The notes under the pieces were generated by a model. That model saw only the letters and a program-made list of their open reading frames with translations, did no database searches and was not told the DNA's origin. Shown in pieces: positions 2,789 through 17,016 of a DNA stretch of 64,000 nucleotides. Position 1 is the stretch's first letter. Every line of letters begins with the position of its first letter. Where the stretch lies: NCBI GenBank assembly GCA_964454265.1, contig CAYVXD010000002.1:888-64887 (forward strand). The letters run 5' to 3'. Source of the stretch: an uncultured Candidatus Sumerlaeota bacterium. GTDB taxonomy: Bacteria; Sumerlaeota; Sumerlaeia; MWCT01; JAUWMI01. Both the position numbers and the translations under genes were made by a program.

Positions 2789-3079
2789 TCAATAACGGTT
2801 CCAATCTTGGATAACTGATGGGGTTGCAGTAGGTGTTGGGGTTGTTGTGGGTGCAGGAGTGGGAGTAGGCGTCGGTGTCTCAGTCGGAGTTGGTGTGGGA
2901 GTTGGTGTGGGAGTAGGTGAGGTGTAGGAGATATACTCTGTCCAGACCTCATCGGTTGTGGTTACGCTGTCAGTGCTGAGTTCTGCGGGAAAGGCGCCGT
3001 AGGATTGCAGGGCGTAAAATCCGTCACCCGTTGATCCTGCGTTTAGCTCGGCACGTCTGCTGAGGTGTCTACCTGCCAC
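2789..3079 (-). pseudogene. Probable 3' continuation (jelly-roll end plus PT-rich tail) of the 970-aa repeat protein, in a different frame
   Basis: 96-aa ORF overlapping the stop of 3043..5955. It reads ...NAGSTGDGFYALQSYGAFPAEL...TPTPTPTPTPTETPTPTPTPAPTTTPTPTATP. A 1-nt indel near 3043-3060 would fuse the two ORFs, and the terminator follows this ORF rather than the upstream stop. Confidence 0.5.
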
Positions 3080-5955
3080 GCTAGCCAGTAGGTTCCTGCG
3101 TCAAGTGTAAGATTAGTTGGGGTGCCTGCGCTGATTGGAGCAACCACGAAGTCGTCTGTTGCGGTGTTGGCAATCTGTCCGGATTGCCAGCGGAGGGTTT
3201 TAGTGGTGGCTTCTTCGTAAAGTGCAAGGCGAAGCGTTCCGCTGGAGCTGTGGGAATATAAGTATACATTCGTCGCCAAGCCTGTCTCCGGCATAGTGAA
3301 TTTGGTGGCTTTTGCGAAGCCTTTCTGTGAAAGGCCAACGCGCACTACTCGCCCAGGTCTCGTGTAAGTGCTAAAATAGGCGTATCCTGTGAGCTGATCG
3401 ATCACCGCGCTCTCAAGATCATTCTCTCCCGAATTCAGCGTCACGGCACCCACCCGGCTCGGTGGGTTGGAACCTGAACCCAGCGCTACCTTCACCACTC
3501 GCCCGGGACTGGTAGAAGTGCCGAAATAGGCGTAGCCGGCCGAGGGATCGATCACCGCGCTCTCAAGATCATTCTCTCCCGAATTCAGCGTCACGGTACC
3601 CACCCGGCTCGGTGGATTGGAACCCGAACCCAGCTCTACCTTCACCACCCGCCCGGGACTGTTCCAAGTGCCGAAATAGGCGTATCCTGCGGATGAATCG
3701 ATCACCGCACATTGTAGAGAATTTTCTCCCGAATTCAAGGTTACTGCTCCGATGCGGGTTGGGGGGTTGGCGCCTGACCCCAGCCCTATTTTCACTACTT
3801 TCCCAGGCAAGGTATAGGTACCGAAGTAGGCATAGCCGGCAGAGGGGTCGATCACCGCGGCGCGGAGTCCATCCTCTCCTGAATTCAGGGTTACCGCTCC
3901 AACACGTGTGGGCGGGTTAGCGCCCGTGCCTAGCGCTACCTTTACCACTCGTCCGGGGCTGGTAGCCGTGCCGAAGTAGGCATAGCCTGCAGACGGATCG
4001 ATCACTGCACTCGCGAGATAGTCTTCCAATGGATTCGTTGCTACCGCTCCCACCCGGCTGAAGGTAGAAAGGTCAATCTTAACCACCTGCGGGGTTGTAC
4101 TACTGGTGCCGAAGTAGGCATAGCCCGCCGAGGAATCAATCACCGCACACCGGAGATTGTACTCTGGGAAACTCAGCGTTAATGCTGCAACGCGAGTGTT
4201 GCTTGAAAGGTCAACCTTTACTATCCACCCGCCGGGGTAGTTAGACGTGCCGAAATAGGCATATCCGGCCTGGGAATCGATTACTCCGCTCCTGAGTTCA
4301 TTCTCTCCCGCAGTGAGCATCACCCCACCCACGCGGCTCGGGGGGTTGGAGCCCGAACCCAGTGCAACCTTCACCACGAGCCCAGCGCTCGTATCTGTAC
4401 CGAAATAGACATAGCCGGACGAAGAGTCAATCACTGCGCTCACGACATGATCCTCTAACCCACTTAAAACAACATAACCCACCTCGCTAGGAGGGTTGGA
4501 ACCTGAACCAAGCGCTACCTTCATCACTTGACCCGCATCAGTGTCTGAGCCGAAATAGGCGTACCCTGCCGCCGTGTCGATTGCTGCAGACGCAAGATTA
4601 CCGACTATCAGTGTTGCTGCCCCCACGCGGGTGGGCGGGTTAGAGCCGGAACCGAGCGCCACCTTCACCACGTAGCCAGCTGCGGTATCTGTGCCGAAAT
4701 ATGCGTAACCAGCGGAAGGATCAATCACCGCGCACCGCAGTCGACCCTCTGCTGGATTCAACGACACTGCCCCGACACGGCTAGGCGGGTTAGAGCCCGA
4801 ACCGAGCGCAACCTTCACCACTTGCCCGGGGTAGCTTCGGGTTCCAAAATAGGCGTAGCCTGCGGAGGTATCGATCACCGCGCTGTATAGATACATCTCT
4901 CCAGAATTCAGTGTCACAGCCCCGACGCGGCTCGGCGGATTAGTGCCTGAGCCCAGTGCCACCTTGACCACGCGGCCAGGGTTGGTATCTGTGCCGAAGT
5001 AGGCATAACCCGCTGAGGTATCGATCGCCGCGCTCACAAGATAACTCTCCCCAGAGTTCAGTGTTAAGGCTCCGACGCGTGTGGGCGGGTTAGAGCCGGA
5101 GCCCAGTGCCACCTTGACTACTCGGCCAGGGTTGGTATCAGTGCCGAAATAGGCATAGCCCGCCGATGTGTCAATCACCGCACTCCGGAGAGCATTCTCT
5201 CCCTCATCCAGTATTAGCGATCCCACGCGGGTAAAAGTGGATAGGTTCATCTTTACCACTTTCCCTGGGCTGGTCCCAGTGCCGAAATAGGCGTAGCCTG
5301 CGGAGGTGTCGATCACCGCGCTAAGGAGATAATCATCTCCCACATTCAGCACCTCCGTGTCCAAGCGCCGAAGACCTGCATTTGGATATGCCGTGCTGCC
5401 GGGCGTATTGTTACCTGCAATCGGATCGCTGAAGCGCAGAGAGCGATCGGTGAAGACGTTGCCTGCACGGTCGGTAATCCGCACCGCAACCGTGTAGTAG
5501 CCCTCGCTGAGGCCGTGTGCGTTCCATTCCGCCTGATAGAGTCCCAGCGTTGCGTCAGTGCTCACGCCGCCCAAATTCATTGGCGCAGGCTTGAGTACAA
5601 GCGTATCTACGGGTTGCGCCTCTTCCTCGCCAGAAGCTGTGATCACCGCCTCAACGCGCTCGACACCCTCGACCCCCTTCACCACTGCCTGGATCTTTAG
5701 TTGCCCGCCGTTCTTCACCGACGGCGACGACAGGCTCGGTATCACGTGGATACGGCCATCGCCCGAACCGATTTTCTCTCCCGCCTGCACTGCAGCGGCT
5801 GGCGCAACCGCCGATTGGATAGCTGCGTTTTCATTCCCCGCAAAGCCAACTGAGCCAAAGCAAAAAAGCGGTAGCATCATAACACGTAATGCAACAACTG
5901 TGACTTTTTGCAGATAAGAAAATACTACTGCGTTGTGGGAACGTCTTTTGTCCAT
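3043..5955 (-). CDS. Secreted giant repeat protein: signal peptide, Ig-like domain, 14 beta-propeller-like repeats, C-terminal jelly-roll-like domain
   Basis: 970-aa ORF with a hydrophobic N-terminus. It carries 14 copies of the unit (A/S)VID-x-SAGYAYFGT-x3-PG-x-VVKVALGSGSNPP-x-RVG-x-TLNSGE. Confidence 0.85.
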   Translation of the reverse strand: MDKRRSHNAVVFSYLQKVTVVALRVMMLPLFCFGSVGFAGNENAAIQSAVAPAAAVQAGEKIGSGDGRIHVIPSLSSPSVKNGGQLKIQAVVKGVEGVERVEAVITASGEEEAQPVDTLVLKPAPMNLGGVSTDATLGLYQAEWNAHGLSEGYYTVAVRITDRAGNVFTDRSLRFSDPIAGNNTPGSTAYPNAGLRRLDTEVLNVGDDYLLSAVIDTSAGYAYFGTGTSPGKVVKMNLSTFTRVGSLILDEGENALRSAVIDTSAGYAYFGTDTNPGRVVKVALGSGSNPPTRVGALTLNSGESYLVSAAIDTSAGYAYFGTDTNPGRVVKVALGSGTNPPSRVGAVTLNSGEMYLYSAVIDTSAGYAYFGTRSYPGQVVKVALGSGSNPPSRVGAVSLNPAEGRLRCAVIDPSAGYAYFGTDTAAGYVVKVALGSGSNPPTRVGAATLIVGNLASAAIDTAAGYAYFGSDTDAGQVMKVALGSGSNPPSEVGYVVLSGLEDHVVSAVIDSSSGYVYFGTDTSAGLVVKVALGSGSNPPSRVGGVMLTAGENELRSGVIDSQAGYAYFGTSNYPGGWIVKVDLSSNTRVAALTLSFPEYNLRCAVIDSSAGYAYFGTSSTTPQVVKIDLSTFSRVGAVATNPLEDYLASAVIDPSAGYAYFGTATSPGRVVKVALGTGANPPTRVGAVTLNSGEDGLRAAVIDPSAGYAYFGTYTLPGKVVKIGLGSGANPPTRIGAVTLNSGENSLQCAVIDSSAGYAYFGTWNSPGRVVKVELGSGSNPPSRVGTVTLNSGENDLESAVIDPSAGYAYFGTSTSPGRVVKVALGSGSNPPSRVGAVTLNSGENDLESAVIDQLTGYAYFSTYTRPGRVVRVGLSQKGFAKATKFTMPETGLATNVYLYSHSSSGTLRLALYEEATTKTLRWQSGQIANTATDDFVVAPISAGTPTNLTLDAGTYWLAWQVDTSADVPS
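3360..5345 (-). repeat. Intragenic tandem coding repeats (about 129-150 nt units, 14 copies)
   Basis: Adjacent units are nearly identical at DNA level. For example, 3396-3510 and 3546-3660 share 'gatcgatcaccgcgctctcaagatcattctctcccgaattcagcgtcacgg...' with only a few substitutions at a 150-nt period. Confidence 0.9.
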
Positions 5956-6150
5956 CTACTCATCTCCTTGCATAATATATTTGTTTTAATGTTTTGTTTT
6001 TGCTCTTTATTTTTAAGAGATAGATTCCTATAACATACTTTGTTCAGGACAATGGGTATTACCTCCTGATTAGCTATGCAATTGACAATGAAGTTACTCT
6101 GGTACTTCGTGCTATTTATAGCCTTCGGTGGAAAGGCCTGCCTAACCAAC

Positions 6151-6300
6151 AAAAAGCTAATTGTCAAGATAAACCTTTAGTCTGCTGGTCATAAATTAGG
6201 ATTGGCACTCGCGCTGGTGGGGAGAGGAATCTGTGCAAATTCTTGGTGAGAGGAAAAAGGGAAGCATTGCGTGGAAACGCGCCCATGCAGGAATTAAAGT
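6151..6300. repeat. Copy 1 of a ~150-nt paralogous intergenic element (partner at 12021..12175)
   Basis: The conserved core is ctgtgcaaattcttggtgagaggaaaaagggaagcattgcg...gcaggaattaaagt. In copy 2 it reads ctgtgcaaatttttggtgagatgaaaaagggaaagcattacg...gcaggaattaaggt. The element lies 5' of the minus-strand gene 3043..5955. Confidence 0.75.
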
Positions 6301-6528
6301 AGCGTAAAGCTCAGGGTGAGGATGGAGGTGAGAGGATCTCGATTATTGCCGGGACGAGGATGAGCAAGGCTTTAGCTGCTTCGGCTGAAAATAAAAGAGC
6401 AGGTAAAAGATGTGGAGTTCATCTTTTACCTGACATGATCACTGTATCCAGTTTTTTCCAGCAAGGCCAAGAAGGGGTGCGCCACGGCGTACCCCTACTC
6501 AGTATTCCGCGGTTCGTTTTATTCAGGT

Positions 6529-8370
6529 CTACGGAATCGCGAGATAGTCAATCGCAACGCTGTCCATGTAGATGGTGCCGCCCTGCGCCGAGCTGAAGTC
6601 GAGCAGGTCAAGCGTCACAATGAATCCATCCTGTCCGGCCGTTGGTGAGCCAGGGAGAATTGGGGTCTCCCAGTAGACGTCGTAGTCAGTTCCACCAACT
6701 GTCGGCATTGCTCCTGGGCCAGCGCCCTGGCTGTTCAGCTCCATGGTCTGCGTCATCTGGCCGTCTTCATTCTGGATACGGAGCCTGACCTGTGGCATGG
6801 TGTTGCGTGCCACGTCACTCGCACACCTCAAGGTGTAGCTCGCACGATAGAGCTTATCCACTACATACGTAAGCTCGTTTGCCGTGCCACTGGACTGCCA
6901 CCATCCATAATTGGCATCCGCAGTGGTGCTAGCCGTGATGGAGAGCGTGCCAGTGCCTTCTCCGCCTGACGTCACCGGGCCAAATCCTACGTTGGTAACG
7001 AATCCCCAGTTGGAAAATTCGCCGCCACTGGCGTACGACTTGACCAATGTGCCAAGTGCCGGAAACGGGAACCGCTCTACAGTCACGGTATCTACATAGT
7101 GCGTTCCATACTGCGCCACGTCAAAGTCAAGCATATCAAAAGCCACACCCAGACTGCCGCTCACCACAGGCGCAAAGTAGCAGGTATATTCTTTCGTTGT
7201 TGGATCTGTGGGCAAGGAGTTGCTGTACGAGCCTGAGGCATTCACCACCTGCGTTGCTGACTCGAGTGATTGATCCTGCACCCAGCGCATACGGAACTGC
7301 GGATTCTGAGCTGCACTTGCCTGATTCGAGGAGACTTCGTACGTTGCACGGTATACGTTGTCTGCTACGTAGGCAAGTTCTGACGGCCCGGTCCATAGCC
7401 CTACGCGGTGCGTGCCATCATTTGCCGAGCTGACGCTTATCCGGCCACCACTATAGCTGGACGATGCCCCTGAGAATCCAGAACCACTCAGCGGCAGGAA
7501 TCCCCAGCCCTCCATGCTTGAATCATACGTATATTCCTTGACGAATGTAACTGGCGTTGCGGTGGGCGTCGGTGTTACGGCTGGTGTAGGAAATGCCATT
7601 GCATCGAGCTCCACCTGCCCGGGAATACTCTGCGCACTCGCGTCAAGATAGAGGCTGAACGTGCCGCCTGATGTATTGTATGCTATCAGGTCCCCATCAT
7701 CATAGAGCGTAGAATTCAACCTGGCTGCTGCATCGAAGGAGAATATCCACTCGGTATCACTCTCGCGACTGAAGGCATTGACATCTACCTGAGCTGGTAC
7801 TCCTTCAGCTGAGCCGTCAAAGTCAAGGCTGGCAGAGAACCCGCTCCCCGTGGTAAAGTGCACCATGTCCTCATCAGCTACCAGGCCTACCACGGGCAAC
7901 CGTGCATCTTCTTCAAGAGAGAATGAGAACTCGAACGGAGAGACAGCAATTACGTCTACTGCATCCAGATTCACCCTGGCTGGCAGGCCGTTGGCCGAGC
8001 CGTCCCACAGCAGGCTGATGCTCACTCCATTCCAGACCAGGAGGTCTTCATCTGCGTAAACCGTGCCGCCGATCTTTACATCTTCTGAAAGCGAGAAGAC
8101 CAGCAGGTCTTTTTCTATTAAATCCACGGCATCAATATTCACCTGTGGGGGGAGCAGGCTGGTTAAAGGCGAGCCATAGAGCGCATACGCGCCCACCCCA
8201 TCTGTATCTACCAGCTCATGGTCTGCGGGCGACAGGCTCACGTACGAGGCATCTTCATTATGCGAAAACACAAACGACGCCTCAGCAACCCCCGGCGGCC
8301 CAATACTCAGGCACACCAGCGCAGCCAGGAGCCAAAACGCTAGAACTAGCGATTGTCGATAATTTCTCAT
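6529..8370 (-). CDS. Secreted protein: 4 N-terminal ~45-aa repeats, PT linker, two CBM/jelly-roll-like domains
   Basis: 613-aa ORF with a signal peptide (LVLAFWLLAALVCLSIGPPGVAEA). Repeats read V(N/D)(L/I/V)DA(V/F)... and the linker reads FPTPAVTPTPTATP. Confidence 0.8.
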   Translation of the reverse strand: MRNYRQSLVLAFWLLAALVCLSIGPPGVAEASFVFSHNEDASYVSLSPADHELVDTDGVGAYALYGSPLTSLLPPQVNIDAVDLIEKDLLVFSLSEDVKIGGTVYADEDLLVWNGVSISLLWDGSANGLPARVNLDAVDVIAVSPFEFSFSLEEDARLPVVGLVADEDMVHFTTGSGFSASLDFDGSAEGVPAQVDVNAFSRESDTEWIFSFDAAARLNSTLYDDGDLIAYNTSGGTFSLYLDASAQSIPGQVELDAMAFPTPAVTPTPTATPVTFVKEYTYDSSMEGWGFLPLSGSGFSGASSSYSGGRISVSSANDGTHRVGLWTGPSELAYVADNVYRATYEVSSNQASAAQNPQFRMRWVQDQSLESATQVVNASGSYSNSLPTDPTTKEYTCYFAPVVSGSLGVAFDMLDFDVAQYGTHYVDTVTVERFPFPALGTLVKSYASGGEFSNWGFVTNVGFGPVTSGGEGTGTLSITASTTADANYGWWQSSGTANELTYVVDKLYRASYTLRCASDVARNTMPQVRLRIQNEDGQMTQTMELNSQGAGPGAMPTVGGTDYDVYWETPILPGSPTAGQDGFIVTLDLLDFSSAQGGTIYMDSVAIDYLAIP

Positions 8371-8387
8371 AGCTTTATCTCCTTTCC

Positions 8388-8452
8388 ATCCGTTTGTCCG
8401 TTGTGTCCGTTTATCCGTTTGCCCGTTTATCCGTTTGCCCGTTTATCCGTTA
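8388..8452. repeat. 8-nt-period tandem array (TCCGTTTN)n, including 2.9 copies of the 16-mer CCGTTTATCCGTTTGC
   Basis: Read directly as atccgtttgtccgttgtgtccgtttatccgtttgcccgtttatccgtttgcccgtttatccgtta. It overlaps the stop codon of the four-helix-bundle gene. Confidence 0.9.
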
Positions 8453-8821
8453 TTTGGCTTTGGTGCGGAGGTATTTAATGAAGCCTGTCAGCGTTTTTGA
8501 TACGTTCTCATATTGATCAAACACAGTCTTAAATTGCTCCGCACTGAGGTATTTCCTATCCAAAGCAACGTATAGATGGCTTTTGACCTCGGAAACCGAT
8601 GAGAGAGAATAGCCGAGAAACCTGATGAACTCCTTCCTTGAGTTCCTGTCAAACCCCTCAGCAATATTCGCCATTACCGAAACAGCAGCTCGCTGTATCT
8701 GGTCCCTGAGCCCAAAGTCTCGGGCAAAACTGCCAGTCGCTATTGTGTCATAGACCAGATTCGTCAATGCTCTTGCCTCCTGCCAGGCTCTAATGTCCTC
8801 AAACCTCTCAATCCTCGCCAT
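8450..8821 (-). CDS. Four-helix-bundle protein (23S rRNA intervening-sequence protein / Avd-like family)
   Basis: 123-aa ORF. Motifs F-x-D-x-x-AWQ-x-A, RDQ-x-x-RAA-x-S-x-x-x-NIAEG and EF-x-x-FL-x-x-S-x-x-S-x-x-E are characteristic of TIGR02436/PF05635. Confidence 0.85.
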   Translation of the reverse strand: MARIERFEDIRAWQEARALTNLVYDTIATGSFARDFGLRDQIQRAAVSVMANIAEGFDRNSRKEFIRFLGYSLSSVSEVKSHLYVALDRKYLSAEQFKTVFDQYENVSKTLTGFIKYLRTKAK

Positions 8822-8834
8822 CTTCTATCCCTTT

Positions 8835-8870
8835 ACGGACTAACGGACTAACTGACCAACGGTCCTACGG
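8835..8870. repeat. 8-nt-period array (ACGGACTA-like), inverted relative to 8388..8452
   Basis: Reads acggactaacggactaactgaccaacggtcctacgg. It contains the 20-mer ACGGACTAACTGACCAACGG shared with 10562.. and 11793.., and it overlaps the stop codon of 8865..10430. Confidence 0.9.
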
Positions 8871-10430
8871 ATGATTATTCACCGACGTGCAGCTCGTCAG
8901 GTTAAAGTTCGTGCCGTTATTGACACAGCAGTTTTCCGCGACAAGGGATTGGATAGCCTCGATCCCATCGCCTGTATTATCGGAGCACGTATTGTGGCTG
9001 ACTGTGCCGCCTTCGTTTATACGAATGCCGTTATCTCCGTTGTAAACGCAGGTATTGCCGCTGACTGTGCTGTTATCCCATGCATCGATTCCATCGTCTC
9101 CGTTGTTAGTGCAGATATTGCCGGTCACTGTGCCGTTGACACTCGAATCGATTCCATCCTCTCCGTTGTTATTGCAGATATTACCGGTGATCATACAGTC
9201 CCTGTTTGCTATGATTCCGGAACCACCATTGTTGTAACAGCGCAGGGCATCAAATTGGGATTTCTCTGCCACACCAGCGTGAATTCCGCTCCCCCGCCAG
9301 TCGCGCACGGTGCCATTGCGGATGGCAATGTTATATTGGGCACCGTTGACATAGATGCCATGGCCAGTGGTCCCTGCTGCTTTGCCAGGCCCAATTAATG
9401 CGTGACCGTTCAGGTCCAGCGTGACATTGTCGGCATCAATAGTGATGCCATTTGTGTTCTGCGTAGCCAGCGTGAGGTCGCCAGTCAGGCGATACATTCC
9501 GGGCTGGGAGATGCTGTAGGGCAGCTCGCTTATGAGAATATCCAATTGATTGTCCGCTACCGCATCCACCGGTGTCGTGTTTCCGATCAAGGTGTTCCCT
9601 GAGACGATATTGTCAGCACCGTCAAGGTCCAGCCCGCGGTCATTATCCGTACAATGATTATCGCTAATACGATTGTCAGAACCAGTAGCGAGTATGCCAG
9701 CACCATCTCCTCCACTGCCGTTCGAGTCGCAGGTATTATCCACTACCCGGCAATCACTCGACACCTGTATTCCATCGCCGGTGTTACTCTGGCAGGTATT
9801 GCCGCTGACCGTGCAGCCTTCGTATGTATGGATGCCGTCGCCTGTATTACTACTGGAGGAATTGCCGGTAACTGTGCTGCCATTCCATGCAAATATGCCG
9901 TTGCCTCCGTTTTCACGGCAGGTATTGCCGCTGGCAATGCTGCCATGGCGTACATTGATGCCGTAGTCTTCGTTAGCTCTGCAGATATTGCCGCTGACTA
10001 TGCTGCAAGCGCCTGTAATGATGCCACCGATACCGTTGTTATAACATCGCAATGCCTCAAACTGACAGTTTTCGGAGAGTATGGCATTAACCCCATTCCA
10101 CTGCCAGTCGCGCACGGTCCCATTGCGTACGGCAATGTTGTATTGAGCTCCGCTGACCACGATTCCAGTGCCATATCCCCCTGCTGCTTTACCAGGCCCG
10201 ATTATCGCATGCCCGTTCAGGTCCAGGGTGACATTGTCCGCGTCAATAGTGATGCCATGCGTATTAGTCTGGGTTGTGGATAGGTCATCAACTACAATAT
10301 ATGAACCGGAGCTGGAGATGGTGTAAGGAATCTCTGCGATGTCAATCTGCCCATCACCAGCCCAGGCAGCTGCCCCCAGCAAAAGACACAAACCAAGAAT
10401 ACAAGCCGTTGTTGTGATACGTCGTTTCAT
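8865..10430 (-). CDS. Secreted right-handed parallel beta-helix (PbH1/NosD-like) repeat protein with an internally duplicated module
   Basis: 521-aa ORF with a signal peptide. The module NVTLDLNGHA(I/L)IGPGKAAG...YNIA(V/I)RNGTVRDW occurs twice, at about aa 65 and aa 335. The rest is many G-N-x-C-x-x-N-x-x-DGI turns. Confidence 0.85.
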   Translation of the reverse strand: MKRRITTTACILGLCLLLGAAAWAGDGQIDIAEIPYTISSSGSYIVVDDLSTTQTNTHGITIDADNVTLDLNGHAIIGPGKAAGGYGTGIVVSGAQYNIAVRNGTVRDWQWNGVNAILSENCQFEALRCYNNGIGGIITGACSIVSGNICRANEDYGINVRHGSIASGNTCRENGGNGIFAWNGSTVTGNSSSSNTGDGIHTYEGCTVSGNTCQSNTGDGIQVSSDCRVVDNTCDSNGSGGDGAGILATGSDNRISDNHCTDNDRGLDLDGADNIVSGNTLIGNTTPVDAVADNQLDILISELPYSISQPGMYRLTGDLTLATQNTNGITIDADNVTLDLNGHALIGPGKAAGTTGHGIYVNGAQYNIAIRNGTVRDWRGSGIHAGVAEKSQFDALRCYNNGGSGIIANRDCMITGNICNNNGEDGIDSSVNGTVTGNICTNNGDDGIDAWDNSTVSGNTCVYNGDNGIRINEGGTVSHNTCSDNTGDGIEAIQSLVAENCCVNNGTNFNLTSCTSVNNHP

Positions 10431-10557
10431 AGTGCCGTCCTCCTTCTCTTTGTCACTTTACTTTGCAGTTCTACGTTTCGCCGTCTTACGCACTGTTAAA
10501 CCAATACGAACACAAGATATTCCATACTCTCAAAATCCACCCACTCCCCTCCTTTCT

Positions 10558-10618
10558 CTAAACGGACTAACTGACCAACGGACTAACGGTCTCAACCGAC
10601 AAACCGGCCAACCAATCA
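10558..10618. repeat. 8-nt-period array, solo copy
   Basis: Reads ctaaacggactaactgaccaacggactaacggtctcaaccgacaaaccggccaaccaatca. It is preceded by cctttctct, as in the 11789 copy, and overlaps the stop of 10616..11668. Confidence 0.9.
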
Positions 10619-11668
10619 GAACGAGACGTTAAGCAAGTCGCCTGCACCCACCGTATTGCCACCAACAATATCGTAGTTTATGCCGTTTCCGCTGGCGCGA
10701 TTGCTGGCAATGTAGTTGCCCGTCGCCGGGTTGCAGTCAATCCCGCGGTCATTATCATTCACCAGGTTGCGTTCAATGCAATTGTCTGAACTCGTTGTGT
10801 GGATGCCCGCTCCATCTCCTGTACTGAAGCCGTTAGAGCCGCACGCATTGTCTACAACCCGGCAATCATAAGAGACTTGTATTCCGTCCCCTGTGTTGAA
10901 GCTGCAGTTATTTCCGCTGACCATACTGCCACCGGTATTGATACCGTAGTATCCGTTGCTGCCGCAGCTATTGCCAGTAACCGTACCGCCAGCCAGTACA
11001 GAGATGCCGTGGATCGTGTTGAACTGGCAGGCATTACCAATGACCGCACATCTTTCCTCTGCTTCAATGCCGTCCGCACCGTTTGAGCGGCAGGCATTGC
11101 CGCTGATCGAACAGCCTTCCCCCGCATCGATACCGTCGTCGCCGTTGCTCATGCAGACGTTTCCGCTGATTGCACAGCCATGGGATGCATAGATGCCGTC
11201 GTACGTGTTTTCATAGCAGGTATTACCGCTGACCGTACTGCCAGGGCCTGCAATAATGCCGCGGGAACCGTTGTTATAGCAACGCAGGGCCTCAAACTGG
11301 CTGTTGTAGGCGTAATCGCCATTAACGCCCGTCTGACGCCAGTCGCGCACGGTGCCATTGCGGATGGCAATGTTATATTTGGTACCATTAACAAAGATGC
11401 CATGGCCAGTGGTGCCTTCTACTTTTCCGGGGCCAATTATCGCATGACCGTTCAGGTCCAGTGTTACATTGTCGGCGTCAATAATAATGCCATCTATGTC
11501 AGTCGCAGTTGTGGACAGGTCGTCAACTACAATATAGGAGCCGGAGCTGGATATAGCATAAGGAATCTCAGCAATGTCAATCTGTCCATCACCAGCCCAT
11601 GCCCATGCGCCCAGCAAAAGCGACAATCCAATTATGCAAGCAATTTTTGTAATACTTCGCTTCATCAT
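10616..11668 (-). CDS. Secreted right-handed parallel beta-helix repeat protein (paralog of 8865..10430)
   Basis: 350-aa ORF. Its N-terminal ~130 aa are nearly colinear with those of 8865..10430 (GDGQIDIAEIPY-x-ISSSGSYIVVDDLSTT...NVTLDLNGHAIIGPGK). Confidence 0.85.
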   Translation of the reverse strand: MMKRSITKIACIIGLSLLLGAWAWAGDGQIDIAEIPYAISSSGSYIVVDDLSTTATDIDGIIIDADNVTLDLNGHAIIGPGKVEGTTGHGIFVNGTKYNIAIRNGTVRDWRQTGVNGDYAYNSQFEALRCYNNGSRGIIAGPGSTVSGNTCYENTYDGIYASHGCAISGNVCMSNGDDGIDAGEGCSISGNACRSNGADGIEAEERCAVIGNACQFNTIHGISVLAGGTVTGNSCGSNGYYGINTGGSMVSGNNCSFNTGDGIQVSYDCRVVDNACGSNGFSTGDGAGIHTTSSDNCIERNLVNDNDRGIDCNPATGNYIASNRASGNGINYDIVGGNTVGAGDLLNVSF

Positions 11669-11788
11669 TTGATCACTCCTTTTTTGTTAGAATAGTATGG
11701 AACGTACACTTTTGCATCTCGCATTGTTTTCGTGCCAATCCCACAAGGACTCTTCGCACTCCAACAATACACGCCTCACCACCTTTCT

Positions 11789-11853
11789 CTAAACGGACTA
11801 ACTGACCAACGGTCTAACGGACTAACCGACCAACGGACATACGAATTAACCGA
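11789..11853. repeat. 8-nt-period array, solo copy in the 5' region of 10616..11668
   Basis: Reads ctaaacggactaactgaccaacggtctaacggactaaccgaccaacggacatacgaattaaccgac. It shares 31 identical nt (cctttctctaaacggactaactgaccaacgg) with the 10549.. copy. Confidence 0.9.
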
Positions 11854-12020
11854 CTTTACACAACGAGCTTTCCAACTTTCACCTTCTCTGGTTTGGACTA
11901 TTTAAAAATGTAAAACCGGGTAGCAAAGTGCATCATTTACTGACTAGCCATGTAAGTGACAACGCGGTTACTCTGACGCATCGTGATAGTGTATAATTTT
12001 TGTATCCATTTTTTTTTAAT

Positions 12021-12175
12021 AAAAAGCAAAATTATTGTCAAACAGAATATCTAGTTTTCTGATTTTTAATTATGACTGGCAGTCGCGCCGGTTTGCATAA
12101 GAGCCTGTGCAAATTTTTGGTGAGATGAAAAAGGGAAAGCATTACGGGCAAACTGGCTCACGCAGGAATTAAGGT
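12021..12175. repeat. Copy 2 of the ~150-nt paralogous intergenic element (partner at 6151..6300)
   Basis: See copy 1. It lies 5' of the minus-strand gene 10616..11668 and upstream of the plus-strand gene at 12382. Confidence 0.75.
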
Positions 12176-12381
12176 GACGCGATGGTCAGTCCAACAACCT
12201 GGTGGCCCAGGCGGCTTCATTCCGTAGCATTCAATTGCACCCATTTTTCCTCTTTACAAACACTGGTGGTATTGGCCAGAGTATTTCGGATTTGTGCGAC
12301 GAGTGCGCCTCTGGAGTAACGGAATCAGCCTGAGGCTGATAAATTGGGTGCGAATACGCGGCGCAGGGGTGAAGGGAGTGC

Positions 12382-13146
12382 GTGATGCGCGTAGTGTTTC
12401 TGGGCACAGGCACGTCATTCGGCGTCCCGATAATTGGATGTCGGTGTCGGGTCTGTCAGTCAGAAAATCCGAAGAATAAACGGCTTCGCGCTAGCGTTTA
12501 CTGTGTGGAAGGAGACAGCCAGGTGCTGATTGATTGTTCGACCGATTTCCGCCAGCAGGCCCTTACGCACCAGATTGATCGTCTGGACGCGGTGCTATTT
12601 ACGCATAATCACGCTGATCATATCTCGGGGATTGATGATTTGCGCATCTACAACCTGCTGCATCACCGGGCAATTGATGTTTACGGCAATGAGGACGTTA
12701 TTAACGATATAAAGCGCCGGTATGATTACTGTTTTAATCCAGTACAGATCGGTGGGGGAGTGCCACAGTTTGAATTGCATCGTGCTGATGTCCCGTTCCG
12801 TATTGGTGAGATAGCCATCACCCCGATTCCGGTGTGGCACGGGAACCTGGAGATTTTGGGATACCGCTTGAATGATTTTTGCTACATTACTGACGCGAAC
12901 AAGATACCCGAGAGTTCGCTGGCTGAGATGCGTGGGCTGAAGCTATTGGTTATTAATGCATTGCGTGAGAAGCCCTTTGCCACACATTTCTCGCTGGCCG
13001 AAGCGCTTGAAATCGCGAAGGCTTTGCAACCCCGCCAAGCATATTTCACCCATATTTCTCACCGCCTGGATCACGAAGAGATTAACCGCACATTGCCCCC
13101 AGAGTATCAGCTTGCCTATGATGGGCTGACCGTTGATCTGGACTGA
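12382..13146 (+). CDS. MBL-fold metallo-hydrolase, PhnP-like (cyclic phosphodiesterase-type)
   Basis: 254-aa ORF with an HNHADH (HxHxDH) motif and an N-terminal GTGTSFGVPIIGCRCRVC Cys cluster as in PhnP. The likely true start is the ATG at 12385, preceded by GAAGGGAG. Confidence 0.8.
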   Translation: MMRVVFLGTGTSFGVPIIGCRCRVCQSENPKNKRLRASVYCVEGDSQVLIDCSTDFRQQALTHQIDRLDAVLFTHNHADHISGIDDLRIYNLLHHRAIDVYGNEDVINDIKRRYDYCFNPVQIGGGVPQFELHRADVPFRIGEIAITPIPVWHGNLEILGYRLNDFCYITDANKIPESSLAEMRGLKLLVINALREKPFATHFSLAEALEIAKALQPRQAYFTHISHRLDHEEINRTLPPEYQLAYDGLTVDLD

Positions 13147-13304
13147 AGTGGCTCGACCATAATCCTGCCGACATTTTTCTCCTTGAAAGGGCAATTTAAG
13201 CATATCCAGTGATCTTTACGTCGTTCTTCCCTCAAGCACAATCGCGCTATTGGCTGCCGGGAGATACGTGTTCGAAGAAACGTAAAAAAGCTATTGACAT
13301 GGCT

Positions 13305-13314
13305 TACAAGTGTA
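13305..13314 (+). promoter_or_regulatory. Candidate BlaI/CopY-type operator (TACA-N2-TGTA dyad)
   Basis: TACAAGTGTA lies 6 nt downstream of a TTGACA hexamer (13294..13299) and about 60 nt upstream of the BlaI-like gene. This matches the TACAnnTGTA dyad known for CopY/BlaI/MecI operators. Confidence 0.4.
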
Positions 13315-13375
13315 GGCTACCGCTTATTTGTGTTGTTAATTGGGCGAATCTAAAGATGCCGGAGGATCAATATTC

Positions 13376-13813
13376 ATGAAGAGAAGAGCCAAAAAAGTTT
13401 CCAGTCCACCACGTCTGTCTGAAGCTGAATGGATTATTATGAAGCCGTTCTGGGAACGGGGCGCACTGGCTGCCCGAGACCTATTCGCCGCACTTCCGTC
13501 TAATAATCAATGGGCTTATAAGACGGTGAAGACAATGCTTGCCCGGCTGGTAAAAAAGGCTGCTCTCGAATACACTCAGGTGGGAAACTCTTATCTCTAC
13601 CGTGCTCGATTCGGGCAGGAGGAGATGGTGAGGGCGGCGGTTAAGAATTTTTCCCACCGCGTGTTGGATGGGGCACTCAAACCTTTTCTTGTTCACTTTT
13701 TTGACGGTAGAGAGCCCTCGGCAGAGGAAATCTCTACTCTGCGCGGCATTCTTAAACAACTTAAGGAACAGCAAGCGCATGATAATGAGAAAAATGCGAG
13801 GAACAAAAAATGA
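13376..13813 (+). CDS. BlaI/MecI/CopY family transcriptional repressor
   Basis: The winged-helix N-terminus reads LSEAEWIIMKPFWERGALAARDLFAAL...YKTVKTMLARLVKK. I chose the ATG at 13376 (GGAGG lies 7 nt upstream) rather than the track's TTG at 13340. Confidence 0.85.
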   Translation: MKRRAKKVSSPPRLSEAEWIIMKPFWERGALAARDLFAALPSNNQWAYKTVKTMLARLVKKAALEYTQVGNSYLYRARFGQEEMVRAAVKNFSHRVLDGALKPFLVHFFDGREPSAEEISTLRGILKQLKEQQAHDNEKNARNKK

Positions 13814-16800
13814 TGAATGCAATTATCACATTCTGGGCGCAATGGATGCTCGCCACATCGTGGCAGCTAGTAGTCATGGTTATAGTGGTTGGTGCTTTAT
13901 GTTTCTTTTGGCGCAAAGCCCCGGTGCGGATGCTGCATTTGCTCTGGCTTTTGGTTTTTATCAAACTCCTTATCCCACCGCATCTGGGACATGATTATTC
14001 GCTTGCCAATCTCCTGGTGCGTTCGGAAATTTTCACATCGCAGCATTTAGCGGTCAATAGTGCGCAAGAGGAATGGCAAGTTCCTGCCGTGCATTTGTCC
14101 AGGACTGCAATCGAAGGCCCAATTGCCATCGAGGATGAGAGCGTAATAAGCGATAATGAGGTCGGTTCATCTCTTCCGTCCACATCAGTTCAAGAATTTC
14201 CTATTGTCTCTGGTATAGGGCAATTTACTTACCAGCATATTCTTTTTGTCCTTTGGCTGGTGGGCGCTGCAGGGCTTTTGCTTAGAAGTTTGATGAGTGC
14301 CGGCAGATTCCGGGGGTGGTTATCTGCTTACGGACAGCCGCCACCTTCATGGTTTAAAGAAAAACTGGCAGAATGGTCTCAGAAATTCAGGCTCAGAGAA
14401 CCCCCAGGATGCTTTATTGTTTCGGGGAGCCATTGTCCGTGCCTTTTCGGCTGGTTCAAGCCCCAATTACTCTTCCCCAAGGATTTGTTAAAGCGCTTGA
14501 CCCCGGAGCAACTGCAAATGGCTGTTTATCACGAATTAACTCATATAAAGGGGAGGGATACCATTATGAACGGGCTGCAAAGTTTACTGCAAATTGTTTA
14601 CTGGTTTCATCCGCTGGTCTGGTTGGCGGGACGCGAGGTTCGGCATTACCGGGAGATGGTGGTGGACGAGGCAGTCGTATCTGCTCATAAGAACTTACCC
14701 AAGCATACCTATGAGCAAACGATTCTTGCCCTGGCAGAGCATAGTCCGGCACGCCCGGTGCCTGCGATGGTGGGAATTCTTGAGCATCGCAGTTTTGTGT
14801 TTAGAAGGGTGATGCGACTCGTCGCCAGCTCCTCCACAAGAATTGGTTGGCGCCAGACGTTTTTAAGCTGGGTGATGTTAGCTCTCTTTACTTTCTTTTT
14901 TATTCCAATGGGGATAAGTCAGCCTCAGGTTTCCCCATCGGATACGCTAAACGTTGAGAAGAAAGCGTTTCCCGAAGTTCTGAATGAGGCGCAGAGGCTC
15001 TATATGCAGTGGACGGGGGAAAGATTTTCTGGGTATCTTGACAAAAGTGATTATGCTGACCTCTCAGACTCCACCAAAGCGGAGCTTGAGAAGGGATGGA
15101 TTAGCATTCTGGAAGGACCATGGAGCCGCAAATATTATGATACGATTAATTGTCTTGCGGCTCTAAAGAGCAAAAAAGCCGTGAAACCGCTGCTCCATAT
15201 TGCTGCCGAGCGCAGGGAAAAGGACAATCGCGATCGCTGGATGGCGGTCAGGGCACTGGGGATAATTGGTGATGAATCGGTGGTGCCGGAGCTTATTCAC
15301 CTGATTTATCATTACAATCAGAACACGCGGTTCTGGGCGCAGATTTCGCTCGCACGAATCACAGGCGTGAATTTCGGCTATGACTGGCAAAAATGGGGTG
15401 AGTGGTGGAATCAGCAAGGCAAGCAACCTCCATTCTCACCTGAAAAAATCACCTGGACTACCAAATACCCTGAATGGGCTGATTCACAGAAGCAAAAGGA
15501 AAGTGATAGAAACTTCGTTGAAAGATTCAGCGGCAGAAAGGAAGAAGAGTCGGCTACCGTTAGTCCTGCTCCAAAGCCTGAAGTGAACTACCTTGGGCAA
15601 GCCAATTTCCCCAGCGTTGTCGCCCTTGACCCGCCAAATGGCGCCACTGACGTCGACCCTGCCCGTGAGCACATTACCGTAACTTTTGACCGCCCAATGA
15701 TGAGAGGCGGATATTCATGGGTAGACAAGGGCAAACGCCCCAAATTAGAGAAAATCGAATGGATTAATGACCACCAGTGTCGCGCATGGGTGACTTTGGA
15801 GCCGGGCCGAGAATATGGCGTATGGCTGAATTTTGGTCCGAGAACGTGTAACTTTAAAAGTCGAGAGGGTGTCTCTGCCGACCGCGTTTACTGGACGTTT
15901 CGCACTAGTTCCGCACAGCAGACAAGTGAAGTGGGGACACTTCAAGCAAAGATAGACAAGGCACAATCCGGTGGTGTCGTCATCGTTTCGCCAGGCAAGC
16001 ACGAAGGCCCCCTGGAAATCACCAAGCCCCTGACGCTGCGTGGCGAGGATGCCCGCACCTGCACAATTGAACTACTCGGCAACGAACCAACCATCACTGT
16101 AAGAGGCACCAAGGACGCTGTCCTTGAGAATTTGACGGTTCGCTGGGCTCCAAAATCAACTGATGTGCGTATTGAATCGCCTGCTGCAATTTACGTGCGA
16201 GACAGCGACGTGGTGATTCGCGGTTGCCGTCTTGAGCCCCTTGAGCGGCCTAAAGACACACCTTACGGCCTAATGGCTGCAGGCAGATCCCACGTGACCT
16301 TTACCGAAGGCAGGAGCACGGGCTTTGCCTACGCCCTGATTTTCCTTGAGGGCGCCAACGGTACTGTCAGCAACTCCATTCTCACAGATGCCGGGCACAG
16401 CGTGGTCACACTTCATGCCAACTCTCGTGTTAAAATTATCGGAAATATCCTTGGCCGATGTGAGTATCATGCGGTGCGTAATACTGGTGGGACAATGGAT
16501 ATGACCAATAATCTGGTAATCGCTGACAATCGCGCTGGCGCTTATCTAGGTAATAAATCGGCTCACGGGCGTATCGCCAACAATCTGTTCTCCCAGAATC
16601 GCGGAGCAATCTGGGCTTATGCTAGTTCCGACGTTACTATTGAGAACAACGTCTTTCTTGCTGAAAATGGCCCCGGCGTAGGGTTCCACGACAGCTGTGA
16701 CTTAACCATACGGAATAATTGCTTTGTCAACAATGCACAAGGTCTGACCAGGTATTCAAAAGAAGGGCGACCACCTGGCATCGGTGCGCGCACCAATGGC

Positions 16801-17016
16801 AACCACTTCTGGAACAATAAAGAAGACTTCGTGGATTTTGAAAAAGAGACCTCTGCGCTATACGGCGATCCGAAATTCACCGACCCCAGTAATGGTGATT
16901 TCACACCGCAAAAAGACTCACCGCTTCTGGATAATACAGGGCACCCACTCGCCGGGCTCACTGACCCCGAACCTATCCGCGCTCTCTGGGCCACCTGGGC
17001 TGCGCTGAATCAATAG
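13810..17016 (+). CDS. BlaR1/M56-peptidase family membrane sensor with HEAT-like, Ig-like and C-terminal right-handed beta-helix domains
   Basis: 1068-aa ORF whose start overlaps the BlaI stop (ATGA). It has 4 TM segments plus the HELTHIKGRD (HExxH) M56 motif. The C-terminal ~350 aa carry PbH1-like repeats (NN-x-F/V-x-x-N). Confidence 0.85.
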   Translation: MMNAIITFWAQWMLATSWQLVVMVIVVGALCFFWRKAPVRMLHLLWLLVFIKLLIPPHLGHDYSLANLLVRSEIFTSQHLAVNSAQEEWQVPAVHLSRTAIEGPIAIEDESVISDNEVGSSLPSTSVQEFPIVSGIGQFTYQHILFVLWLVGAAGLLLRSLMSAGRFRGWLSAYGQPPPSWFKEKLAEWSQKFRLREPPGCFIVSGSHCPCLFGWFKPQLLFPKDLLKRLTPEQLQMAVYHELTHIKGRDTIMNGLQSLLQIVYWFHPLVWLAGREVRHYREMVVDEAVVSAHKNLPKHTYEQTILALAEHSPARPVPAMVGILEHRSFVFRRVMRLVASSSTRIGWRQTFLSWVMLALFTFFFIPMGISQPQVSPSDTLNVEKKAFPEVLNEAQRLYMQWTGERFSGYLDKSDYADLSDSTKAELEKGWISILEGPWSRKYYDTINCLAALKSKKAVKPLLHIAAERREKDNRDRWMAVRALGIIGDESVVPELIHLIYHYNQNTRFWAQISLARITGVNFGYDWQKWGEWWNQQGKQPPFSPEKITWTTKYPEWADSQKQKESDRNFVERFSGRKEEESATVSPAPKPEVNYLGQANFPSVVALDPPNGATDVDPAREHITVTFDRPMMRGGYSWVDKGKRPKLEKIEWINDHQCRAWVTLEPGREYGVWLNFGPRTCNFKSREGVSADRVYWTFRTSSAQQTSEVGTLQAKIDKAQSGGVVIVSPGKHEGPLEITKPLTLRGEDARTCTIELLGNEPTITVRGTKDAVLENLTVRWAPKSTDVRIESPAAIYVRDSDVVIRGCRLEPLERPKDTPYGLMAAGRSHVTFTEGRSTGFAYALIFLEGANGTVSNSILTDAGHSVVTLHANSRVKIIGNILGRCEYHAVRNTGGTMDMTNNLVIADNRAGAYLGNKSAHGRIANNLFSQNRGAIWAYASSDVTIENNVFLAENGPGVGFHDSCDLTIRNNCFVNNAQGLTRYSKEGRPPGIGARTNGNHFWNNKEDFVDFEKETSALYGDPKFTDPSNGDFTPQKDSPLLDNTGHPLAGLTDPEPIRALWATWAALNQ

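Follow-up and report, generated by a model that had tools for sequence, protein, structure and literature searches.

A duplicated non-coding element, possibly a control region, upstream of two secreted-protein genes of an uncultured Sumerlaeota bacterium

Results

We analysed a 64,000-nt stretch (the window) of contig CAYVXD010000002.1, positions 888 to 64,887, from an uncultured Candidatus Sumerlaeota bacterium (GCA_964454265.1). Two copies of a non-coding intergenic element of about 265 nt were found there, upstream of two minus-strand genes that encode proteins of 970 aa and 350 aa. These genes are not homologous to each other, while both products carry hydrophobic, signal-like N-terminal segments. 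The element evolves slowly, and one of its copies arose by segmental duplication. Our preferred, still tentative interpretation is that it supplies a surface-protein operon with its promoter, the regulatory DNA ahead of that promoter and the beginning of the leader, and that this duplication placed it before a second secreted-protein gene. The parts of the element and its immediate surroundings are as follows (positions in the window).

6047–6314, minus strand: copy 1 at the full extent of homology (blastn, nhmmer, four-way alignment), upstream of the 970-aa gene
11920–12189, minus strand: copy 2, upstream of the 350-aa beta-helix gene; orthologous to 1345–1607 of locus L006 and 2583–2845 of locus L051 (see below)
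6228–6304, plus strand: most conserved core of copy 1, with about 92% identity to L006; holds a candidate hairpin and a non-functional open reading frame (ORF, 6233–6307)
12102–12179, plus strand: most conserved core of copy 2; holds a candidate hairpin
6050–6111, minus strand: second conserved block of copy 1 (CACGA..GAGTAAC..TTGTCA..CAT.GCT..TCAG), matching the other copies at about 70% identity
11924–11985, minus strand: second conserved block of copy 2, from the four-way alignment
6162–6167, minus strand: candidate −35 box of copy 1, TTGACA(AT), invariant; TAGGCA 17 nt downstream
12036–12041, minus strand: candidate −35 box of copy 2, TTGACA(AT), invariant; TAAAAA 17 nt downstream
11669–11919, minus strand: rest of the 350-aa gene's long 5' leader, 89–97% identical to L006; includes an 8-nt periodic array (11791–11854)
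6311–6364, minus strand: decayed 3' gene end, translating to ..ALLILVPAIIEILSPPSSP and a stop (6311–6313); copy 1 begins directly after it
6400–6432, minus strand: intrinsic terminator of a 613-aa gene, a 13-bp stem followed by CTCTTTTATT

The first-pass annotation had described a pair of about 150 nt at 6151–6300 and 12021–12175. Both copies are present there, but the homology extends over about 265 nt. With each 290-nt copy as blastn query against the window, 6050–6314 aligned with 11924–12189 at 68% identity over 267 columns (E=1.5e-32). Profile limits determined with nhmmer were 6047–6310 and 11920–12185, and a repeat search of the window returned the same pair. Across the 150 nt originally quoted, global identity is 75%; the value of about 85% given for the core applies to 50–60 nt only, the best sub-stretches of copy 1 against copy 2 being 40 nt at 90% (from 6233), 60 nt at 83% and 80 nt at 80%. 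The minus-strand TTGACA hexamers reported at 6162–6167 and 12036–12041 were both found. The distance from the hexamer to the start codon is 207 nt in copy 1 (codon at 5955) and 368 nt in copy 2 (codon at 11668).

Similarity between the paralogous copies is patchy. The core is 68–93% identical and TTGACAAT is invariant, whereas the next 47 nt match at about 33%, as random sequence would; a 62-nt block at about 70% follows, and no similarity is left beyond it. This pattern fits a promoter architecture. The element would then be non-coding cis-regulatory DNA of the minus-strand gene downstream and would comprise four parts, namely an upstream regulatory segment (about 140 nt) that contains the conserved core and may bind a regulator, the invariant TTGACAAT as most likely −35 box, a poorly conserved region of spacer, −10 and transcription start, and the second conserved block as the first 60–80 nt of a long 5' leader. 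In L006, this second block is similar (75% over 28 nt) to an array of 8-nt period that lies further downstream in the leader.

Outside the window the element was found twice, both times in relatives of the window organism. An exact scan of 185,579 species (one genome each) with the best-conserved 18-mer gave 15 matches, with about 17 expected by chance, and one was real: a Candidatus Sumerlaeota metagenome-assembled genome (MAG; GCA_030613245.1, contig JAUWMI010000014.1, locus L006, later L059), which we refer to as the sister MAG. Its copy shares 87% identity with copy 2 and 71% with copy 1. A further copy was reached on JGI contig Ga0309839_1000385 (locus L051, 2583–2845) via the DNA around homologues of the 350-aa protein. 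The same 18-mer gave 31 matches in a scan of metagenome contigs, all of them by chance, and neither blastn against plasmid and phage collections nor a scan of viral contigs matched the element. It was also absent, by blastn, nhmmer and covariance model, from the second beta-helix cluster of the sister MAG (L050) and from more distant relatives with the same operon type (L052–L058); over 200 kb of related beta-helix clusters, nhmmer and the covariance model returned nothing beyond the four known copies. The element thus appears to be confined to a few closely related genomes, where it heads the same beta-helix cluster in every copy except copy 1. The additional copies upstream of other signal-peptide proteins that the first-pass annotation had suggested looking for did not turn up: blastn with each copy found solely its partner within the window, and elsewhere the element was found only in the sister MAG and on the JGI contig, at the same cluster.

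To quantify constraint we compared the orthologous set, that is copy 2, L006 and L051, over alignment columns 160–510, which comprise the element and the first 90 nt of further leader. Pairwise differences were 12.6%, 11.5% and 6.3%. In comparison, 28–37% of four-fold degenerate sites differed in codons 1–124 of the downstream gene (Fisher's exact test against the element: P=3e-4 to 4e-6), 21–34% in the 613-aa gene and 20–39% in the 521-aa gene of the cluster. The element evolves 2–5 times slower than four-fold degenerate sites and, given 6–13% against 20–39% in its neighbours, the region is under constraint. Furthermore, identity between L006 and L051 rises from about 70% in the upstream gene end and terminator to 93–100% exactly where the element starts. 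The gene trees of the cluster conflict with each other: four-fold sites of the 613-aa gene pair the window with the sister MAG (21% versus 34%), while the 521-aa gene and the element pair the sister MAG with the JGI contig (20% versus 39% and 6% versus 12%, respectively), which points to recombination or exchange among the paralogous beta-helix genes. Despite this recombination, all four-fold baselines are well above the divergence of the non-coding region.

The surroundings of the copies reveal how the element came to lie before two unrelated genes. In the sister MAG and on the JGI contig the gene before the element encodes a very large secreted protein (2480 aa in L059) and ends with two hairpins, the second succeeded by a T-run. 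In both, the element starts immediately after a GC-rich hairpin and T-run (1314–1343 in L006) and extends to the first beta-helix gene. The decayed gene end at 6311–6364 is homologous to the C-termini (ASLILDRAIIETLSPPGLP and a stop) of these large proteins. Since copy 1 begins directly after the stop of a decayed gene end of the family that neighbours the element elsewhere, it arose by segmental duplication; we take it to be the remnant of a duplicated unit that comprised the large-gene end and the element. On the JGI contig the same relic follows a 616-aa gene without the element, and in the sister MAG neither relic nor element follows the homologue of the 613-aa gene; a GntR/ABC locus occupies the position of copy 1 instead. 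At copy 2 the large upstream gene is gone and has been replaced by a divergent gene of the metallo-beta-lactamase (MBL) fold, with the breakpoint at the 5' edge of the element. Linkage of the element to the gene downstream survived these two independent rearrangements, and in copy 1, which moved before a different gene, orientation remained unchanged.

This constant orientation through rearrangements, together with a position between a terminator and the first surface-protein gene in every genome that carries the element, is what makes it read as upstream control DNA. In the proposed scenario the ancestral site would lie between the terminator of the large secreted protein gene and the first secreted beta-helix gene of the cluster. 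A segmental duplication would have copied the last codons of the large gene together with the element to a place before the unrelated 970-aa gene, which would thereby have acquired the same control region, and the two genes may be co-regulated. Of the two readings offered by the first-pass annotation, a duplicated promoter or regulatory region is therefore the better supported by position, orientation and slow evolution, short of proof.

The second reading, a relic of a small plus-strand gene, is refuted. Copy 1 does contain the plus-strand ORF described earlier (GTG at 6233 to TAA at 6305–6307, 24 codons), and copy 2 carries the 1-nt insertion that breaks it. Copy 1 and L006 retain the frame, whereas L051 has lost it through an independent −1 indel. 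Between copy 1 and L006, as read from the alignment, five codons (7 nt) differ, all of them non-synonymously and with loss of the stop, and there is no synonymous change. The coding-like synonymous changes noted before sit downstream of the frameshift in copy 2 and are not repeated in the other comparisons. Minus-strand frames fared no better in a six-frame translation of the four copies, being interrupted by stops or shifted at indels. One coding relic did travel with the duplication; however, this is the minus-strand C-terminus of the large secreted protein at 6311–6364, outside the interval originally noted. At the Rfam gathering threshold the window yielded no match except one tRNA, and none at E≤1 within 5900–12450; folding of the whole element on both strands was no better than that of shuffled sequences (z=−0.19, −1.09, +0.43 and +1.31). 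The exclusion of coding and these negative results count in favour of the regulatory reading.

Several observations weigh against the regulatory interpretation. No canonical −10 box (TAnnnT at 16–18 nt) follows the TTGACA: the hexamers 17 nt downstream read TAAAAA in copy 2, TAGAAA in L006, TAAAAA in L051 and TAGGCA in copy 1, and no copy has a T at position 6. A scan with the sigma-70 consensus, which may not be that of Sumerlaeota, rejects the TTGACA site of every copy. TTGACA is invariant in all four copies, but it occurs 57 times in the window, so that a single occurrence means little. The dyads TTTGCA-N10-TGCAAA and CAGAA-N9-TTCTG of the orthologues are absent from copy 1, and hence no shared operator can be named. 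The sister genome holds no orthologue of copy 1, and the gene downstream of copy 1 seems to be frameshifted, so this copy may be decaying. Moreover, conservation among the orthologues is nearly uniform over about 350 nt, the spacer included, a pattern more usual for functional RNA transcripts than for promoters, and the core contains a conserved inverted repeat whose wobble pattern favours an opposite-strand RNA. On the other side, TTGACA-N18-TAAGAA occurs in a more distant relative with this operon type, where it lies 555 nt ahead of the first beta-helix gene, indicating that long leaders from a TTGACA promoter recur in these clusters. Other promoter classes were rejected on inspection by eye: no GG-N10-GC spacing that would fit sigma-54 and no consistent motif of the extracytoplasmic function (ECF) or Bacteroidetes type were seen. 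Directly after the −10-like hexamer of copy 2 lies a homopolymer tract (12009–12017; A9 on the gene strand, T9 on the plus strand), outside the −35/−10 spacer. Its counterparts are A7 in L051 and, with an interruption, A4 in L006; the tract may be a slippage-prone site.

The strongest competitor, unlikely in itself, is that the core is transcribed on the plus strand, divergently from the surface-protein genes, into a small non-coding RNA or into the 5' portion of an antisense RNA. Three features are relevant to it.

11968–11997, plus strand: candidate promoter of copy 2, TTACTC (11968–11973), an 18-nt spacer and TATAAT (11992–11997), read from the sequence
6238–6248 with 6284–6295, plus strand: helix P1 of the candidate hairpin of copy 1 (6238–6295), with an inner GCGUG-GAAA-CGCGC stem-loop
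12112–12122 with 12159–12170, plus strand: helix P1 of the candidate hairpin of copy 2 (12112–12170)

Such an RNA would start at TTACTC-N18-TATAAT in copy 2 and its orthologues, the TATAAT being perfect and conserved in L006 and L051. In the candidate hairpin, an outer helix of 11 bp (AAUUCUUGGUG / CAUGCAGGAAUU) is followed inwards by a purine-rich internal loop (about 20 nt) and, at the apex, a GCGYG-NAAA-CRCGC stem-loop. The hairpin is the minimum free energy fold of three of the four copies on the plus strand and forms in none on the gene strand, and the consensus fold of the four sequences reaches −40.0 kcal/mol on the plus strand versus −21.9 kcal/mol on the gene strand. Helix 1 is paired in all four copies, and 62 of 64 cells hold standard pairs. 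All cells that depart from Watson–Crick pairing are G-U on the plus strand and would be A-C mismatches on the gene strand; in the apical stem two pairs are changed on both sides. The hairpin also coincides with the stretch best conserved between the paralogues, with indels confined to its internal loop. However, the covariation is not significant, its score being reached by 38 of 500 shuffles for what are four closely related sequences, and single-sequence z scores of the hairpin segment on the plus strand range from −0.5 to −1.9. Coming from four near-identical sequences, the hairpin is suggestive, not established. No plus-strand terminator follows it, the T-run of the adjoining hairpin in L006 and L051 lying on the other strand. 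The −35 matches at only two of six positions, the −10 of copy 1 is degenerate (TATAGC/TTTATA), and the consensus scan did not pick up the candidate promoter. The plus-strand sequence further downstream is different in each genome, Rfam holds no matching family, and the covariance model of the hairpin retrieved only the four known copies from the 200 kb of related loci. Long-range pairing of CCGGUUUGC with GCAAACUGG in copy 2 was considered as well and rejected, because it is not kept in L051 or copy 1.

We consider it rather improbable that copy 1 is a functionless leftover of the segmental duplication, with patchy similarity that reflects ancestry, perhaps with gene conversion, and with function restricted to the copy-2 lineage. 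Copy 1 is joined to a dead gene fragment, has no orthologue after the 613-aa gene of the sister genome, where the JGI contig keeps just the relic, and has lost the dyads and −10-like hexamers of the orthologues. Its downstream gene is seemingly split by a frameshift near 3043–3079. In addition, the 5' half of the L006 copy resembles copy 1 and the 3' half copy 2, which shows that copies exchanged sequence. Yet the 70-nt core is still about 92% identical to L006, whereas the adjoining dead relic has fallen to 73–82% identity with its living homologues. With TTGACAAT and the second block retained, such uneven decay is the pattern that selection would produce.

Even less probable is that the whole element lies within a long minus-strand leader RNA, made from an upstream start or by read-through of the terminator and acting in cis, for example in anti-termination or translation control. 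The uniform constraint over about 350 nt, which includes the supposed promoter spacer, would suit this, as would the long, repeat-rich leaders of these operons, and the pyrimidine-rich CUUUCCCCUUUUCAUCUCACC could pair with the purine-rich AGAAAGGAGGGGAG motifs of the leaders, as read from the sequences. But no copy has a promoter-like site upstream of the core, terminators lie directly upstream, and the upstream flanks of copy 2 are unrelated to those of L006 and L051. Neither stable or covarying structure nor an ops/JUMPstart sequence was found on the minus strand. Finally, a plus-strand small protein of about 24 residues (VQILGERKKGSIAWKRAHAGIKVA) can be set aside almost entirely: its ORF is intact in copy 1 behind a Shine–Dalgarno-like GGAGAGGA, but that sequence is not conserved and the indels described above break the frame in copy 2 and L051, while L006 keeps it with the non-synonymous changes.

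Other features of the locus

Genes around the two copies follow the minus-strand order divergent MBL-fold gene, copy 2, 350-aa gene, 521-aa gene, 123-aa gene, 613-aa gene, terminator, copy 1 and 970-aa gene.

12382–13146, plus strand: divergent MBL-fold gene, adjoining copy 2
10616–11668, minus strand: right-handed beta-helix protein, 350 aa (Pfam PF13229)
8865–10430, minus strand: right-handed beta-helix protein, 521 aa, second gene of the cluster after copy 2
8450–8821, minus strand: PF05635 four-helix-bundle protein, 123 aa (E=7.9e-34)
6529–8370, minus strand: secreted protein, 613 aa, preceding the terminator upstream of copy 1
3043–5955, minus strand: 970-aa protein of 50-aa repeats (repeat search), downstream of copy 1

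The terminator at 6400–6432 marks the 5' limit of any minus-strand transcription unit that includes copy 1. Best matches of the neighbouring proteins are annotated as Sumerlaeota/BRC1. The 970-aa ORF stops at 3043, and an overlapping frame (2789–3079) continues with a Pro/Thr-rich linker and the tail ..PTPTPTPTPTETPTPTP..SVIQDWNRY before a stop; the break near 3043–3079 reflects a frameshift, a pseudogene or an assembly error. No protein identical to the 970-aa product exists in a collection of 5.8 billion clusters, the best match having 54% identity, and a search for a copy-1 orthologue via 970-aa homologues found none, the best matches being repeat-driven and at most 54% identical.

All intergenic spacers of the beta-helix cluster hold tandem arrays with a period of 7–8 nt, located at 8389–8451, 8835–8862, 10561–10613 and 11791–11854 in the window and at 3555–3589, 4641–4685, 6379–6427, 7889–7915 and 9958–9984 in L059. 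Their units form complementary pairs (GTTAGTCC with AACGGACA, AGACTNN with AGTCTNN), and no such array was detected outside cluster spacers in the 64-kb window or the 22 kb of L059. The arrays could be RNA processing hairpins, sites for RNA-binding proteins or substrates for recombination between paralogues.

The PF05635 gene ('23S rRNA intervening sequence protein') is flanked by mutually complementary arrays of 8-nt period (8371–8449 and 8822–8890), with (GTTAGTCC)n upstream and (AACGGAYA)n downstream and a predicted duplex of −49.3 kcal/mol (z=−5.5 against shuffles). In a more distant relative (L055, 11840–12339) the flanks also pair (−38.1 kcal/mol, z=−2.65), and in the sister MAG (L006, 2731–2830) the two arrays are adjacent and fold as a hairpin with no gene in the loop. 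Given these complementary flanks, the gene lies in the loop of a long hairpin within the intergenic spacer of an mRNA. A gene in a hairpin loop is also the architecture of the rRNA intervening sequences that name the family (Coxiella intervening sequence, PMC4990558). PF05635 genes may insert into hairpin loops and be excised by RNase III.

A module of about 125 nt precedes each beta-helix gene (10431–10560 and 11669–11790 on the minus strand of the window; L006 2810–2945; L051 about 2980–3071; L055 7560–7700). It starts with a strong Shine–Dalgarno-like AGAAAGGAGGGGAG, followed by GTG or ATG and a short upstream ORF, which has 14 codons before the 521-aa genes and 35 codons before the 350-aa gene, whose start it overlaps by ATGA. 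As read from the sequences, the peptides are not conserved (five non-synonymous changes to one synonymous, window against L006). If the module matters at all, the act of translation or the RNA structure would count rather than the peptide.

Beyond the MBL-fold gene, TTGACA followed by TTACAAGTGTAG with a TACA-N2-TGTA dyad (13294–13325) precedes a gene of the Penicillinase_R family of repressors (PF03965, 13340–13813). The dyad is reminiscent of the sites bound by BlaI/MecI/CopY-family repressors. The repressor gene overlaps a 1068-aa ORF (13810–17016), which from its translation alone may be read as a BlaR1-like membrane sensor with beta-helix-like repeats in the outer domain.

Discussion

The element matches no described family; in kind it is most likely ordinary cis-regulatory intergenic DNA of very narrow distribution. 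Among the closest parallels are ordinary bacterial promoter regions that carry activator or repressor sites upstream and were spread to new genes by segmental duplication (promoter capture). Like these, it is intergenic and locked in orientation after a terminator, and it combines a −35-like hexamer with a conserved segment 60–140 nt upstream, an unconserved spacer and the scar of a gene fragment. Unlike these, it has neither a recognisable −10 box nor an identifiable operator common to both copies, and its constraint over about 350 nt is unusually uniform.

JUMPstart/ops leaders of surface-polysaccharide and adhesin operons (RfaH and the systems of other NusG paralogues such as UpxY and LoaP) are likewise conserved non-coding sequences, with a long 5' leader, at the start of long operons whose products are secreted or reach the surface. 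In contrast to them, the best-conserved part of our element lies upstream of the likely promoter and not in the transcript, and no NusG paralogue turned up in the neighbourhood of the examined loci. Of 51 matches to GGCGGTAG with at most one mismatch, none fell within 5956–6400 or 11669–12381, and we rejected this class.

Invertible promoters (fimS, the Bacteroides capsule invertons) and homopolymer phase-variable promoters also lie upstream of surface-protein genes. The copies have no flanking inverted repeats in common, for which reason we rejected an inverton, and all four share one orientation; the sole inverted pair (6001–6017/6385–6401) is AT-rich, 82% matched, restricted to copy 1 and overlaps the terminator tail. 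With homopolymer promoters copy 2 shares a tract of varying length (A9, A7, A4) next to a −10-like hexamer, but the tract does not lie in the −35/−10 spacer.

Cis-antisense or divergent small RNAs at surface-protein promoters are paralleled by the opposite-strand wobble hairpin and the TATAAT that faces TTGACA, whereas a terminator, significant covariation and a constant downstream target are missing here. Miniature repeats that carry promoters, such as Correia (CREE), ERIC and REP/BIME elements and miniature inverted-repeat transposable elements (MITEs), are also short, non-coding, repeated and gene-adjacent. We rejected an interspersed repeat, however, as the element has neither terminal inverted repeats nor a target-site duplication and occurs twice in 64 kb and once in the sister genome. 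The flanking gene relic indicates that it moved by segmental duplication and not by transposition.

If the plus-strand candidate promoter and the minus-strand TTGACA promoter are both real, their polymerase footprints would overlap face to face, and the two transcripts could be mutually exclusive. It is conceivable, although doubtful, that the region of about 350 nt is a lineage-specific switch between a plus-strand hairpin RNA and the minus-strand operon. Competition between the promoters, or else the RNA itself, would then switch expression of the secreted beta-helix and repeat proteins, and the hairpin would define a new non-coding RNA family in a phylum without a cultured member or a described regulatory RNA.

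The finding is of local interest and has no bearing on a long-standing open question. In practice it provides a defined, constrained target of about 265–350 nt for the mapping of transcripts in metatranscriptomes. If the element is indeed the control region of a surface-protein operon, it would be a clean example of such a region passed on to an unrelated gene, with the scar of a dead gene end still attached. It would then also represent a first candidate promoter and leader architecture for surface-protein operons of Sumerlaeota, a phylum known only from metagenomes.

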